From: Acaryochloris marina MBIC11017
GTDB lineage: Bacteria; Cyanobacteriota; Cyanobacteriia; Thermosynechococcales; Thermosynechococcaceae
Assembly: GCF_000018105.1 (NCBI RefSeq)
Contig: NC_009925.1
Span: 810,001 to 842,000, forward strand
DNA length: 32,000 nt
Direction: 5' to 3'
Part shown: positions 6,552-11,368 of the stretch, in pieces
How positions within the stretch are numbered: the stretch's first letter is position 1
Layout: each line of letters starts with the position of its first letter
Translations under genes and position numbers: made by a program
Notes under the pieces: generated by a model
The model's input: only the letters and a program-made list of their open reading frames with translations
What the model was told of the DNA's origin: nothing
Databases searched by the model: none

Positions 6552-7430
6552 ATGAACTCTCAAATTGACTGGACTTCTGAGCAGTGGAATCAGATACAAC
6601 AGCTTGTTGCTGATGAGGTGAGTAAGGTTAGTGTTGCAGGATCATTCCTAGCTTGTTGTGGTCCACTAGAACAAAGTGCCACTGTGGTTCGCAGCCAAAC
6701 ACTACTTGAAGTTGAACCTGAAGGGGATTCCATACCTGAGAATCTAGTTCTAGAACCTATTAAAGTTGACGATATTGATACTCTTAGGCTTTGGACTTTG
6801 TCAGTTTACATTGAGCTGAAACAGCGTCAGCTAGCTGAAGAGAATTTAATTGGGGCAATTTCCGCATTTCGCCGAGCAGCTAACTTATTAGCACGTTCAG
6901 AAGATGCAATTATTTTCAATGGTCTACCGCAGGCTAACCCCACCAATCAACAATTAAAGGATGCTAGAAGCCCTATTCTATGTAGAGTGAAGGGTGGTCA
7001 ACAAGCAGATGGGCTTGTAAATAGAGCGTCACGTGATCCAATTTCAGGTCCTTTAGGGGAGCGGCTTGTGATTAACATTGCGGATGCGATCTCAAACCTT
7101 GAATTAAGCGGGCATTTGGGACCGTTTGCTTGTATCCTAGGCCAAGGTGCGTTTGTTGAGGTAAACACACCAAATGGCTCTCTTGTGCTACCAAAAGACC
7201 GTATTGAACCTTTGTTAGGCACACAGCTCTTACGTTCCAGTACCTTACAAGATCATCAAGTTGTGGTCGTTTCCTTGGCGGGTGATCCCATCGATTTAGT
7301 CGTGGCCACCTCCCCCACCGTGCAATTTTTAAATGTCAGTAACGAAGCGAGATACCTGTTCCGAGTCTATGAGAAATTTGTCCTGAGAGTGAAGGAAGAG
7401 GGTGCCGTGAGTGCCTTTTCTTTGCCCTAA
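6552..7430 (+). CDS. Encapsulin nanocompartment shell protein, Family 1 (Linocin M18-like, HK97 fold)
   Basis: 292-aa ORF, ATG at 6552. By-eye collinear match to remembered T. maritima and M. xanthus EncA sequences. N-terminal W..I helix: WTSEQWNQIQQLV. SEDAIIFNG matches FEDEVIFRG / QEDELIFYG. SGHLGPFACILGQGAF matches QGHFGPYAVVLSPRLY. VVVSLAGDPIDLVVATSPTV matches VVVSTGRENMDLAVSMDMV. YLFRVYEKFVLRVKEEGAVSAF matches HPFRVLEALLLRIKHPDAICTL. The length is typical of Family 1. Confidence 0.85.
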   Translation: MNSQIDWTSEQWNQIQQLVADEVSKVSVAGSFLACCGPLEQSATVVRSQTLLEVEPEGDSIPENLVLEPIKVDDIDTLRLWTLSVYIELKQRQLAEENLIGAISAFRRAANLLARSEDAIIFNGLPQANPTNQQLKDARSPILCRVKGGQQADGLVNRASRDPISGPLGERLVINIADAISNLELSGHLGPFACILGQGAFVEVNTPNGSLVLPKDRIEPLLGTQLLRSSTLQDHQVVVVSLAGDPIDLVVATSPTVQFLNVSNEARYLFRVYEKFVLRVKEEGAVSAFSLP

Positions 7431-7477
7431 ACCCAAATTTTGATCCCCATCCCCCCTCATAGCAGACAGGAAACATC

Positions 7478-9475
7478 ATGCAAAAGAAGGTTGTGATCCT
7501 TGGTGGAGGCGTGGCTGGACTGAGTGCCGCCCATGAGCTGATTGAACGAGGGTTTGCCGTAGACGTATACGAAGCCAAGAAAATTCCTGGAGGAAAGGCC
7601 CGCAGTATTCCCGTGCCCAATACCGGAGGCATGGGCCCCAATGGTCCTCGAAAGCCCCTGCCCGGAGAACATGGCTTCCGATTTTTCCCTCGCTTCTACA
7701 AACATATTGTTGATACCATGGCGCGGATTCCTTATGGGAAAAACAAAACCGTTGCCGATAATCTGGTCGATACAACGCGAGTTGAAATGGCCCGCTATGG
7801 CCAACGTCCCATCGTATTTCCATCCCGTTCTCCTCGCACCTTTGCAGATGTCCAGGAAATCCTCAATGAGTTTCCCACCATTTTTGGGCCAGACTTTGGC
7901 GTCTCTCCCGAAGAAATTGCTTTTTTTGGCACCAAAGTCTGGCAAATCGTCACTTCTTGCGAAGAACGGCGCTTAGCGGAATATGAGAAAGAAGACTGGT
8001 GGGAGTTTGTAGGGGCAGACCAGCGTTCCCCGGCCTATCAGAAAATTTTTGGTCATGGCATCACCCGTTCCCTGGTCGCGGCAAAGGCTCATCTGGCGAG
8101 TACCAAAACCATTGGCGATATTTTTGTCCAGCTTCTGTTTGATTTAGTAGAGCCGGGACCGAGTAGCGATCGCGTTCTCAATGCGCCCACCAACGATGCC
8201 TGGATCAACCCTTGGCTGGCCTACTTAATTCGACAAGGGGTGCAATATCATCTGGAGGCCAAGGTCTTAGCCATTGACTGTGTGAATGGACTGATTCAGG
8301 GAGCCACGATTGAGCAAGATGGCCAGACTTTTCAGGCTCAAGGGGACTATTACATCGCCGCAGTCCCGATCGAGCGCATGGCGGAGCTGGTGACCGACAG
8401 CCTCAAAACGGCGGATCCAGAATTAGGGAAGCTCCATCAGCTCAGCGAAGGCGGGGTGTCCTGGATGAATGGCATTCAGCTTTATTTAACGCAGGATGTG
8501 CCCCTGTCCCACGGCCATGCGATTTATGTCGATTCTCCCTGGGCGCTCACCTCTATTTCCCAACGACAGTTTTGGCCAGGGGTTGATTTTAATCAATATG
8601 CCGACGGTCGGATTAAAGGCATCATCTCTGTTGATATTTCCGAGTGGGATGAAAAGGGCCTCAATGGCAAAACTGCCAAGGAATGCACGCGGGAGGAAGT
8701 TAAAAATGAGGTGTGGGCGCAACTCAAAAAGAGCATCAATATCCACGGCCAGGAAATTCTCAAGGATGAATATTTAGACCATTGGTTTTTGGATCCGGCG
8801 ATTTACCTGGTCGAGGGGGAAGGAGATACCAATGAAGAACCGCTGCTGGTCAATTTAATTAATACTTGGGTGAAACGCCCAGACGCGGTGACGGATATTC
8901 CCAATCTATTTCTTGCGTCCGATTATGTTCGCACCTATACGGATCTGGCGACCATGGAAGGGGCCAATGAAGCGGCTCGCCGCGCTGTCAACGGCATTAT
9001 TGAGTCGGCCAACATGGATGCCCCTCCATGCAAGATCTGGAAGCTGCATGAGCAAGAAATTTTTGAACCCTGGCGAGTGATCGATCGCATTCGGTTTCAC
9101 CAGGGCTTACCCTGGGATGACAGTTTGGTGCGATGGGGATTATCGGCTCTCAAGTTAGCCCACCAAGGTGGCCGAATTCTGGAGCAGTTGCTCGGGGTCA
9201 CCATTGATCAGCCCCTGGAAAAATTAGGTAACCCCCTCTATGCGGTCGGCACCCAAGGCTTTGACAATGTTGAACTGCGGCAAGAGCTGATGGAGGTGGT
9301 GCAAAAGTCAGTGCTAGATATTGTGGTGCGGATGGCGGAGTCCCAAACGATGCCTGAAACCATCCCTAGCTTGGCTACACTCCAAACATTATCCGAACAG
9401 CACCACCCCTCTTTTGTTCAGTCCTCTAAACAGCCCCCTCAGCGTTCCGGAAAAGTCCGCATTATTCCTGAGTGA
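7478..9475 (+). CDS. FAD-dependent oxidoreductase (amine oxidase / phytoene desaturase superfamily) with a non-catalytic C-terminal extension of about 155 aa
   Basis: 665-aa ORF, ATG at 7478 preceded by AGGAAA. N-terminal dinucleotide-binding motif VVILGGGVAGLSAAHEL...YEAKKIPGGKARS. C-terminal FAD motif FLASDYVRTYTDLATMEGANEAARRAVNGI ends near residue 510. About 155 further residues follow, up to ...QPPQRSGKVRIIPE. Confidence 0.9.
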   Translation: MQKKVVILGGGVAGLSAAHELIERGFAVDVYEAKKIPGGKARSIPVPNTGGMGPNGPRKPLPGEHGFRFFPRFYKHIVDTMARIPYGKNKTVADNLVDTTRVEMARYGQRPIVFPSRSPRTFADVQEILNEFPTIFGPDFGVSPEEIAFFGTKVWQIVTSCEERRLAEYEKEDWWEFVGADQRSPAYQKIFGHGITRSLVAAKAHLASTKTIGDIFVQLLFDLVEPGPSSDRVLNAPTNDAWINPWLAYLIRQGVQYHLEAKVLAIDCVNGLIQGATIEQDGQTFQAQGDYYIAAVPIERMAELVTDSLKTADPELGKLHQLSEGGVSWMNGIQLYLTQDVPLSHGHAIYVDSPWALTSISQRQFWPGVDFNQYADGRIKGIISVDISEWDEKGLNGKTAKECTREEVKNEVWAQLKKSINIHGQEILKDEYLDHWFLDPAIYLVEGEGDTNEEPLLVNLINTWVKRPDAVTDIPNLFLASDYVRTYTDLATMEGANEAARRAVNGIIESANMDAPPCKIWKLHEQEIFEPWRVIDRIRFHQGLPWDDSLVRWGLSALKLAHQGGRILEQLLGVTIDQPLEKLGNPLYAVGTQGFDNVELRQELMEVVQKSVLDIVVRMAESQTMPETIPSLATLQTLSEQHHPSFVQSSKQPPQRSGKVRIIPE

Positions 9476-10568: not shown

Positions 10569-10606
10569 GACCACTGGTTTTGAGTCGCAAGTAGAGGACA
10601 GTCAAG

Positions 10607-11368
10607 ATGAAACACTATCGACGTAAACCCCTCCAGCTCATCGATCAAGGGCTACCCGAATCGGTCACTGGCCTTCTGGAACAGGTTGAAACACTTCCAT
10701 CTACGGTGTCTGAAGCGGGAGGGTTAGCTGCTGAGCCCAAAGCGCTCACAGATCCGGTTGCTCAGGTTATCCAGCCCATGGCCGGTGAAACAATACCCAC
10801 CCCTGAAGCTCTCGTACAGCAAGCAGCCACTATTCTTGATAACGATCTATCAACTCCCCTCGAATCTGCTCAGACCGTAGCCTCTCCCCTAGACCTAGGA
10901 ACGACGACTCCTCCTAGACCCAATAGCTATTCTGTTCCAGGCTTAGTGGACGAAATGCATGGATTTGTCAATGAGTTGGCTAATCTACTCTCCCTCAAAT
11001 CAAATTTGCCGGGTAGCGTATCAGAATCAGCACCATCGAGCGAGGCAGGTGTTCCTCTACTGCAGCCTGCATACCCCAGCCACGCGGGAGAGACAGTTCA
11101 GATCTCATTTAAGGTTCACAATGATCGATCAGAATCCACTCAAACCAAAGTTTTTTGTACGGATTTGCACAGTTGCCAAGGCGATCTAATTGCTCAGGAT
11201 GCAATATCTATTACCCCCAATCCCCTCAGTCTTGCACCCGACGCAACAGAGTCCATTCATATTTCCATTCAACTCCCCCAGAATCTTCCTAAAGGCGAGT
11301 ATTCAGGGATTTTAATGGCAACGGAATTGTCTTACCTAAAAGCGATGATTTCGGTAGTAGTGACTTAA
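10607..11368 (+). CDS. Hypothetical protein: ~150-aa low-complexity (P/S/T/E/A-rich, likely disordered) N-terminal half plus ~100-aa beta-sandwich-like C-terminal domain
   Basis: 253-aa ORF, ATG at 10607 with GAGGA upstream, 38 nt after the prenyl synthase stop. The C-terminal pattern GETVQISFKVHN...ISITPNPLSLAPDATESIHISIQLPQNLPKGEYSGILMA resembles CARDB/NEW3-type Ig-like folds. Confidence 0.7.
   Translation: MKHYRRKPLQLIDQGLPESVTGLLEQVETLPSTVSEAGGLAAEPKALTDPVAQVIQPMAGETIPTPEALVQQAATILDNDLSTPLESAQTVASPLDLGTTTPPRPNSYSVPGLVDEMHGFVNELANLLSLKSNLPGSVSESAPSSEAGVPLLQPAYPSHAGETVQISFKVHNDRSESTQTKVFCTDLHSCQGDLIAQDAISITPNPLSLAPDATESIHISIQLPQNLPKGEYSGILMATELSYLKAMISVVVT

Follow-up and report, generated by a model that had tools for sequence, protein, structure and literature searches.

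Layout of the locus

The DNA analyzed here is a stretch of 32,000 nucleotides (nt) from Acaryochloris marina MBIC11017, referred to as the window, and positions are given in window coordinates unless they follow a locus number. Positions 2073 to 11368 form one six-gene unit, entirely on the forward strand, that is built around the gene of a Family 1 encapsulin shell and joins it to a flavoenzyme and a prenyl diphosphate synthase. This unit belongs to a genuine, conserved class of Family 1 encapsulin operons that apparently has not been described. Its features are as follows:

2073-5531, forward strand: STAND-type regulator of 1152 amino acids (aa), with a class III nucleotide cyclase, an AAA_16/NB-ARC-like ATPase, and TPR; core cluster member
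5541-6425, forward strand: two-domain DUF3237 protein, 294 aa, an exact match to the 294-aa entry 329726.AM1_0833
6552-7430, forward strand: Family 1 (Linocin_M18-type) encapsulin shell, 292 aa (ABW25878, UniProt B0BYJ3)
7478-9178, forward strand: catalytic part of the flavoenzyme (residues 1 to 567), amine-oxidase/phytoene-desaturase superfamily, COG3349, HpnE-like
9179-9442, forward strand: variable flavoenzyme linker (residues 568 to 655), predicted to be disordered, with one low-confidence helix
9443-9472, forward strand: conserved C-terminal peptide RSGKVRIIPE (residues 656 to 665), a candidate noncanonical targeting peptide
9516-10568, forward strand: short-chain trans-prenyl diphosphate synthase, GGPPS/IdsA-like, 350 aa (PF00348)
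10607-11368, forward strand: 253-aa accessory protein (329726.AM1_0837), with the N-terminal sequence MKHYRRKPL encoded at 10607-10633
11465-11483, forward strand: terminator-like hairpin, 97 nt 3' of the last gene (consensus scan only)

The open reading frames (ORFs) of the shell (6552-7430), the flavoenzyme (7478-9475, 665 aa), the synthase (9516-10568, with a GTG start), and the accessory protein (10607-11368) are separated by gaps of 47, 40, and 38 nt. A consensus scan found no terminator-like sites in these gaps, so that the four closely spaced ORFs are arranged just as in the original prediction, a note made from the sequence of the window. That note took the four genes to be the operon, which is correct for these genes but not for its full extent. 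Two further genes on the same strand, 2073-5531 and 5541-6425, lie 9 nt apart and end 126 nt before the shell gene, and they belong to the unit because each is co-conserved in 56 of the 64 shell loci described below; the boundaries given before were too narrow. The hairpin at 11465-11483 is the single terminator-like site between position 11368 and the convergent genes downstream, and it is the probable 3' end of the operon. The operon proteins match the A. marina MBIC11017 chromosomal entries ABW25877 to ABW25881 exactly. An Rfam scan of the window gave zero matches.

Domains of the classical Family 1 cargo proteins (DyP, ferritin-like, IMEF, hemerythrin, and rubrerythrin) are absent from all window ORFs of at least 120 aa, in agreement with what the original prediction had noted for the neighborhood. 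Likewise, no canonical GSL targeting peptide was found in any real gene of the window.

A divergent Family 1 shell

The product of 6552-7430 scores 75.3 bits against PF04454 (Linocin_M18; cut-off, 24.3), and a profile built from 18 shell relatives matches M. xanthus EncA at 1.9e-22. The AlphaFold2 model of the shell has a predicted local distance difference test (pLDDT) value of 86.8 and a predicted template modeling (TM) score of 0.83. It presents the N-terminal helix of the Family 1 type, with a helix at residues 9 to 26, and the top 50 Protein Data Bank (PDB) matches retrieved with it by Foldseek are all Family 1 shells, with target-normalized TM scores of ∼0.72 to 0.84. The closest of these structures are of the T=3 and T=4 types. 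A single Pfam domain covers the 292 aa, and the Pfam search revealed neither a cyclic nucleoside monophosphate (cNMP)-binding domain (PF00027) nor any other insert in the shell.

The Pfam score, the profile match to EncA, and the predicted fold agree with one another, and because of this agreement the protein is a divergent but genuine Family 1 shell, as the original prediction had it. The hidden Markov model check proposed there gave a divided answer, as the shell passed PF04454 but missed the NCBIfam equivalog NF041155, considered further below. The shell itself is not new to the databases, since the identical A. marina entry is already named "family 1 encapsulin nanocompartment shell protein." The claim of an undescribed system thus does not extend to the shell, which was already annotated as Family 1, but it stands for the candidate cargo, for which no description was found in the literature searched.

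A flavoenzyme and a variant prenyl synthase follow the shell gene

The two genes downstream of the shell encode the enzyme types that had been proposed for them, an amine-oxidase/phytoene-desaturase flavoenzyme and a GGPPS-like synthase. The flavoenzyme scores 69.4 bits against PF01593 (Amino_oxidase). Its top NCBIfam match is HpnE (TIGR03467), at 83 bits with a cut-off of 283, and the PDS, ZDS, and CrtI models give 24 to 41 bits with cut-offs of 238 to 622. Public entries name the protein "hydroxysqualene dehydroxylase" or "phytoene dehydrogenase, putative." Squalene or phytoene synthases of the HpnC/HpnD/CrtB type (PF00494) were not found among the window ORFs scanned. In a Foldseek search with the AlphaFold2 model of the flavoenzyme, rice phytoene desaturase (5mog) showed the highest target-normalized TM score, 0.75, followed by oleate hydratase, the CrtI-like desaturase 4rep, PPOX, and MAO. 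A W-x-L-H-E-P...G-L-P-W-D segment is conserved in the flavoenzyme, where it precedes a long tail.

The 350-aa protein scores 201.8 bits against PF00348 (polyprenyl_synt), and its best solved relative is the T. thermophilus GGPPS 1wmw (3e-48). The IdsA, GGPP_syn, and Family 2 cargo models score 179 to 190 bits, all below their cut-offs; for NF041169, the model of the Family 2 polyprenyl-transferase cargo, the value is 184.7 bits and the cut-off is 450. The first aspartate-rich motif (FARM) reads DDVED in the window and DD[IVL]ED in 57 of 57 relatives, and the second (SARM) reads DDVLN in the window and DD[VIL]LN in 59 of 59. The replacement of the last Asp of the SARM by Asn in all 59 relatives therefore defines a variant subfamily, and the protein is, by sequence, a GGPPS-like synthase of this variant DDxxN subfamily.

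The gene set is conserved across phyla

A pattern scan with one genome per species, in which the partner genes were located by tblastn, retrieved 64 shell loci. The flavoenzyme is present in 61 of them and the synthase in 60; the cyclase gene adjoins the shell in 56, and the DUF3237 gene, also found in 56, stands immediately before or after the shell gene. The three loci without a flavoenzyme end less than 350 bp from the shell gene, so that all 61 informative loci contain it. The synteny check proposed in the original prediction is thus strongly positive, and the linkage of shell and enzymes in other genomes exceeds chance by far. Gene order is kept among the shell loci. The pairwise distances of the components are correlated among 25 loci (Mantel r of 0.876 for shell and flavin adenine dinucleotide [FAD] domain, 0.851 for shell and synthase, and 0.949 for FAD domain and synthase; p=0.001), and to judge from these distances, the components are inherited as a module.

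The hosts belong to at least six phyla, namely Cyanobacteriota (Acaryochloris, Thermosynechococcaceae, and Cyanobium/Prochlorococcaceae), Armatimonadota, Gemmatimonadota, Acidobacteriota, Pseudomonadota (Alpha- and Betaproteobacteria), and Actinomycetota. The system is also abundant in soil and freshwater metagenomes, and its initial description as a rare cyanobacterial system has to be abandoned. Locus L036 comes from a metagenome-assembled genome (MAG) labeled Chitinophaga pinensis, with cluster proteins nearly identical to those of the Prochlorococcaceae MAGs L041 and L046, as in the C-terminal tails of the DUF3237 proteins. This suggests that the contig is misbinned, and Bacteroidota are therefore not counted among the host phyla.

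These data bear on the possibility that the adjacency is incidental, with isoprenoid genes as mere neighbors of a shell whose real cargo, for example a bacterioferritin, is encoded elsewhere. Bacterioferritin cargo has indeed been reported for some cyanobacterial Family 1 systems, and for the "Minor" operons of the 2021 census, which include Bradyrhizobium entries, neither a cargo nor a targeting peptide was found (PMC8346489). However, an incidental arrangement would not be expected to persist in 61 of 61 informative loci from six phyla with its gene order kept, nor to yield correlated distance matrices, nor to be accompanied by terminal peptides that occur only in the shell-linked members of both protein families that carry them (as detailed below). 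This explanation is scarcely tenable and is close to refuted by the synteny.

Split, fused, and shell-free lineages

At 43 loci, the flavoenzyme and the synthase are encoded as one ORF of ∼985 aa, and this fusion shows that both act together in one pathway; it is found, for example, in Bradyrhizobium sp. STM 3557 and Variovorax sp. M-6. A neighbor-joining tree of the FAD domain separates the split (S) and the fused (F) types into two deep, reciprocally monophyletic clades, and the A. marina window belongs to the split clade.

A metagenome scan gave >578 matches, of which 80 loci were retained: 21 of the S type, 10 of the F type, 6 truncated loci with a shell, and 43 of a third type (N) with a shell-free flavoenzyme. 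Of the 18 S or F loci with 1.3 kb or more of upstream sequence, 17 contain the shell. The remaining one, L076, breaks off directly behind the flavoenzyme and belongs to a subclade with the shell downstream. The three long split-type contigs all carry a shell homologue, the synthase, the cyclase, and a relative of the 253-aa protein. In two of these split-type metagenome contigs (L066, 11032-11996; L067, 7062-7962), the shell gene is frameshifted, and gene callers give fragments of 90 to 101 aa. The frameshifts are probably errors of long-read assembly, and breaks of this kind would hide the encapsulin from automated surveys.

The 43 N-type flavoenzymes (540 to 610 aa, 47 to 58% identical) have neither the tail nor the terminal peptide, and no link to a shell. 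Many of them have a hydrophobic or basic amphipathic C terminus, such as ...IIKKIRNFFSSKK, and these ends are probably membrane anchors, which suggests that the N-type homologues are membrane-associated enzymes. The N-type loci (L089-L154, e.g., L090 2136-3890 and L106 8001-9680) show no shell, synthase, DUF3237, or 253-aa neighbor, and conserved neighbors, sought in the 43 metagenome loci as a guide to the substrate, were not found. In three N-type loci (L089, L092, and L107), a cyclase-AAA gene lies directly upstream.

The two upstream genes

The product of 2073-5531 matches Guanylate_cyc (74 bits), AAA_16 (69 bits), and TPR in Pfam, and it is TIGR03903-like over residues 93 to 1100, at a score below the cut-off of that model. 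A Crp-like regulator (cNMP-binding plus HTH_Crp_2) lies near the cyclase in ∼14 loci (e.g., L009 4192-4884, L032 5308-6000, and L042 4299-4967), which fits a cyclic-nucleotide control of the operon.

The second gene encodes a protein whose C-terminal part (residues 147 to 293) belongs to PF11578 (DUF3237/UPF0311; 107 bits). Its N-terminal ∼110 aa are strand-rich by sequence, with no Pfam family in the first 140 aa, and its PDB relatives, 4pux and 3c5o, are functionally uncharacterized members of UPF0311. A short x-V-G-G-R-x-x-x tail is confined to the DUF3237 proteins of the fused clade, where it comes straight after the last strand, with no linker. Neither this tail nor the interdomain linker, which is also specific to the fused clade, is convincing as a loading signal.

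The architecture of the first gene, a class III cyclase with an AAA_16/NB-ARC-like ATPase and TPR, would also suit an antiphage or conflict system in which a STAND NTPase-cyclase works with an HK97-fold sensor or decoy and the enzymes serve as effectors. The cyclase domain reaches as much as 72 bits against the Pycsar PycC models of PADLOC, the shell shares its fold with the HK97 capsid, and the spread of the cluster across phyla suggests horizontal transfer. Yet only the cyclase domain matches PycC, and it scores no better there than against the generic cyclase domain (74 bits). The other cluster proteins have no PADLOC match except a generic Rossmann one, and no effector was found among them. 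Furthermore, the shell resembles cellular Family 1 encapsulins, including the N-terminal helix, and not phage capsids. The few shell-free flavoenzyme loci with a cyclase directly upstream fit the regulation of a pathway, and the Crp-like regulators that accompany the cluster in ∼14 loci point the same way. A role in defense is, on balance, very improbable.

Terminal peptides and the 253-aa partner

In known Family 1 systems, a flexible linker rich in Ala and Pro bears the targeting peptide at the C terminus of the cargo (PMC7925596, PMC11126975). The A. marina flavoenzyme adjoins the shell gene and ends in a disordered tail with a short conserved peptide. Within the tail, pLDDT falls below 50 at residues 568 to 604 and 624 to 661, and the linker is rich in Ala, Arg, and Ser, with a sequence that is not conserved among homologues. 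A protein search retrieved 120 stand-alone flavoenzyme homologues (53 to 98% identity), and 113 of these carry the motif [R/G]-[S/R]-G-[K/R]-V-[R/Q/E]-I-[I/L/V]-[P/S]-[R/Q], located 5 to 7 residues from the C terminus. Its Gly is kept in 106 of the 113, its Val in 108, and its Ile in 106. Every split-type locus has the peptide; fused-type loci and shell-free homologues do not. These sequence and model features make the flavoenzyme the candidate primary cargo. In L097 and L100, which form a divergent split-type subclade, the flavoenzyme ends in the variant ...G-R-[I/L]-R-I-V-Q-K.

The 253-aa protein begins with its N-terminal peptide, continues with two helices within a disordered region, and ends in an Ig-like β-sandwich. 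Searches of the PDB and Pfam gave weak Ig/Fn3-like matches in the C-terminal half only and assigned no family, which agrees with the half-disordered, half-β-sandwich protein originally proposed. The family comprises 334 cluster representatives at an E value of ≤1e-3, and of 150 representatives, 29 show M-x-[YH]-Y-R-R-K-P-L as an N-terminal motif, including 17 from the top 20. Members are found in split-type loci, where they start with this motif. Relatives without the motif directly adjoin DDxxN-type synthases (54 to 57% identity) in encapsulin-free loci, for example on the metagenome contigs L068-L070, L073, and L074, where the FARM context is NAFLVHDDVED; other neighbors in such loci are GGR-like FAD reductase, IspH/LytB, or NUDIX genes. 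The family thus looks like a general, undescribed partner of DDxxN synthases, and the A. marina member is a candidate adaptor, or a second cargo, that would partner the synthase. Because the shell-free relatives of both families lack terminal peptides, the flavoenzyme and the pair of synthase and partner existed beforehand, the peptides being gained specifically in the company of a shell.

At the split-type locus L087, the C-terminal motif of the flavoenzyme is kept and no 253-aa homologue or analogue is detectable, this being the one clear-cut locus of its kind. In L097 (3876-4589) and L100 (727-1488), a CARDB-like β-sandwich ORF of 237 to 253 aa takes the place of the 253-aa protein; it separates the shell gene from that of the flavoenzyme and has ...PYENGSYYRLK... 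as its N-terminal sequence. For a metagenome scan with the 253-aa protein as seed, a first alignment offered no usable conserved stretch; a second one led to 52 pattern matches, none of which was confirmed. Homology between the β-sandwich of the 253-aa protein and the N domain of the DUF3237 protein was considered and rejected (hhalign probability, 0.6%).

A candidate isoprenoid compartment

The reading that we favor, and regard as somewhat probable, is that of a Family 1 compartment in which the C-terminal peptide holds the flavoenzyme inside and the 253-aa adaptor does so for the synthase. A C15-C20 prenyl compound would be both made and modified there, with the DUF3237 protein as an obligatory shell partner and the STAND cyclase as a regulator. 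The shell would self-assemble into an icosahedral compartment. The flavoenzyme would be tethered to the inner shell face by its flexible tail of ∼90 residues and RSGKVRIIPE, and the 253-aa partner, with its own terminal peptide MKHYRRKPL, would bring in the synthase. Inside, isopentenyl diphosphate and dimethylallyl diphosphate would be converted to a C15-C20 prenyl diphosphate, and the flavoenzyme would then oxidize, reduce, or hydrate this compound or a derivative at a double bond or an allylic position. Enclosure would shield the cytoplasm from H2O2 or from an intermediate that is hydrophobic or reactive. The DUF3237 protein may, in addition to being an obligatory shell partner, bind the lipid product, and the STAND cyclase would provide cyclic-nucleotide control, in some genomes by way of a Crp-like regulator. 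For the broader proposal of a widespread class of Family 1 isoprenoid organelles, marked by the non-GSL peptide G-[K/R]-V-R-I-x-P, a 253-aa adaptor for a DDxxN synthase, and STAND cyclase control, the chances appear evenly balanced.

A number of observations weigh against this compartment. The shell scores 79.3 bits against NF041155 (encap_f1), below the cut-off of 100, and therefore belongs to a divergent subfamily. The flavoenzyme peptide does not contain the GSL core of known targeting peptides. In EncA, Asp39 and Asp214 form salt bridges with an Arg of the targeting peptide, and these positions align with Ala34 and Gly223/Thr224 of the A. marina shell. Only four shell positions (35, 97, 200, and 266) separate the split from the fused clade, so that no clear co-adapted pocket emerges, position 35 being adjacent to the equivalent of EncA Asp39. 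The synthase starts ∼17 residues before its conserved core and has no terminal extension, and the AlphaFold2 model of the flavoenzyme is of moderate confidence (pLDDT, 70.5). Above all, in the fused clade the shell, the DUF3237 protein, and the cyclase are retained, and the peptide, any terminal extension, and the 253-aa protein are missing: searches of fused-type loci for G-[K/R]-V-R-I-x-P, in a strict or a relaxed form, gave chance matches in noncoding frames only, and the fused enzyme has no N- or C-terminal extensions.

The last of these points gives rise to the principal alternative, namely, a functional link without encapsulated enzymes. The peptides would assemble a complex of the flavoenzyme, the 253-aa protein, and the synthase, as the noncovalent split-clade equivalent of the fusion, while the shell would hold something else (the DUF3237 protein or a hydrophobic product) or would be loaded by a peptide-free mechanism common to both clades. 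Because the fused clade has no peptide, the peptide follows the split state, which would be expected of a peptide that links the enzymes with one another and not with the shell. In fact, the split state, the peptide, and the 253-aa protein go together, and no fused-type locus has any of them. The 253-aa family adjoins DDxxN synthases generally, even without an encapsulin; the peptide is not a canonical GSL one, and the acidic anchor residues of EncA are not conserved. A DUF3237 protein as content of the shell would agree with a gene that always touches the shell gene, and with a V-G-G-R tail in the fused clade only. That tail, however, follows the last strand directly, with no linker. Moreover, in encapsulin-free loci the members of the 253-aa family are paired with the synthase although they have no N-terminal peptide, which is therefore not needed for the pairing, and L087 has the C-terminal motif without a detectable 253-aa homologue. 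A short peptide on a disordered tether of ∼90 residues is a known Family 1 cargo design, and we know of no encapsulin that stores a small molecule without an enzyme cargo. Taken together, an enzyme complex outside the shell is rather unlikely, although it has to be reckoned with.

For the compartment reading, the new Family 1 cargo class that had been predicted therefore stands in part. The linkage, the cargo-like tail and peptide, and the want of any prior description that we could find speak for it; on the other side are the non-GSL peptide, the fused clade that does without it, and a cargo status that we infer.

Additional and neighboring genes

An acetoacetate-decarboxylase-like (PF06314) protein of ∼300 to 400 aa accompanies many clusters, for example in L012 (18063-19079), L022 (4438-5406), L051 (14388-15284), L066 (13367-14566), L065 (10766-12841), and L067 (15683-17251). 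In L065 it is fused to a protein of the 253-aa family, and in L067 it is fused to a DUF3237 domain and a globin domain. Alphaproteobacterial fused-type loci contain a small, variable ORF of 110 to 164 aa between the shell and the fusion gene (L012 11078-11572, L025 11154-11486, L040 11021-11377, L043 11203-11586, L048 11074-11496, and L050 10985-11335). It belongs to no Pfam family and has the core ...GPW-x-[I/V]-V-x-T-T...Y-D-x-K-E....

In the window, two genes on the reverse strand (11491-12474) converge on the 3' end of the operon, and in other genomes the encapsulin cluster is not accompanied by either of them in a conserved way. One (12025-12474) encodes a NIL-domain protein with a 2x[4Fe-4S] ferredoxin, and the other (11491-12018) is a Cys-rich ORF of 175 aa without a family. 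Also on the reverse strand, an IS630-like transposase lies in two overlapping ORFs (15722-16686), one with HTH domains (16270-16686) and the other with a DDE_3 domain (15722-16273); it is either a frameshifted insertion sequence or one with programmed frameshifting. A 388-aa ORF on the reverse strand (24100-25266) has no Pfam match and adjoins a class-V aminotransferase (22939-24093).

Placement in the literature and significance

To our knowledge, Family 1 encapsulins have been known almost only as containers for iron-storage and peroxide-handling enzymes. A biosynthetic or lipid-modifying compartment, which would be the first in this family, would widen the chemistry attributed to the best-studied shell family, and it would be a convergent counterpart of the Family 2B terpenoid encapsulins. 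Encapsulin engineering would also gain a new targeting peptide, and possibly an adaptor, among its tools, and the compartment would point to an unknown isoprenoid product of many soil and freshwater bacteria and cyanobacteria. The fused clade would then imply a second loading mode, and the split and fused clades together are a natural experiment on the evolution of cargo loading.

The 2021 census assigned Family 1 systems to DyP, ferritin-like, IMEF, hemerythrin, Bfr, and fusion types and left 90 systems unassigned (PMC8346489). Its "Minor" operons, which have no clearly defined cargo or targeting peptide, list encapsulins of Bradyrhizobium japonicum and B. jicamae (PMC8346489). The fused-type system occurs in the Bradyrhizobium loci L040 and L048, and members of it are therefore probably among the census entries already; the compartment, if it exists, would provide some of these unassigned "Minor" operons with a function. 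Terpenoid enzymes have been assigned to Family 2B and 2A shells only (2021 census, PMC8346489; July 2026 preprint). In the literature searched, which did not cover all subscription journals, no Family 1 encapsulin with a polyprenyl, DUF3237, or FAD-dependent oxidoreductase cargo is described, and matches for such cargo combinations were Family 2B work or unrelated DyP clusters only. The encapsulin cargo literature from 2023 on, a 2025 review, and the July 2026 preprint do not mention such a system.

Comparison with known systems

The classical Family 1 systems (T. maritima Enc-Flp, M. xanthus EncA with EncB/C/D, and the DyP and IMEF systems) share the shell family PF04454 and the fold with the A. 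marina system. The A. marina shell has their N-terminal helix and matches the structures of the EncA, Q. thermotolerans, and B. methanolicus shells. As in these systems, the gene of a candidate cargo lies beside that of the shell, and a disordered linker in its product leads to a short conserved peptide at the C terminus; the 253-aa protein with its N-terminal peptide is reminiscent of the ferredoxin of IMEF systems as a second protein. In contrast, the candidates are an HpnE/PDS-like flavoenzyme and a prenyl synthase instead of iron or peroxide enzymes, and the peptide reads G-[K/R]-V-R-I-[I/L/V]-P, not GSL, with the EncA anchor residues not conserved. The shell gene also comes first and the enzyme second, the STAND cyclase and the DUF3237 protein are obligatory partners, and an entire sister clade has no terminal peptide. 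For the "Minor" Family 1 operons, the five-gene core, the dichotomy of fusion and split, and the terminal peptides were not described (PMC8346489).

The flavoenzyme belongs to the same superfamily as HpnE and the CrtI/PDS-type desaturases, with HpnE as its best NCBIfam match and PDS as its best target-normalized structural match. It differs from them in falling far below the equivalog cut-offs, in having an extra W-x-L-H-E-P...G-L-P-W-D segment and a long tail, and in the absence of HpnC/D and CrtB from the cluster.

The Family 2B terpenoid systems, with 2-methylisoborneol synthase, geosmin synthase, or polyprenyl transferase as cargo, likewise link a shell to isoprenoid enzymes, and the A. 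marina synthase scores 185 bits against the model of the Family 2 polyprenyl-transferase cargo. Both have a tie to cyclic nucleotides, which in Family 2B is a cNMP-binding domain within the shell and here is a cyclase gene, sometimes with a Crp-like regulator. Unlike Family 2B shells, however, the A. marina shell is a 292-aa protein that consists of Linocin_M18 only, without a cNMP-binding insert. The synthase remains far below the 450-bit cut-off of that cargo model and does not have the disordered N-terminal loading domain. Finally, the cluster contains no terpene cyclase, and its flavoenzyme has no counterpart in the Family 2B systems described.

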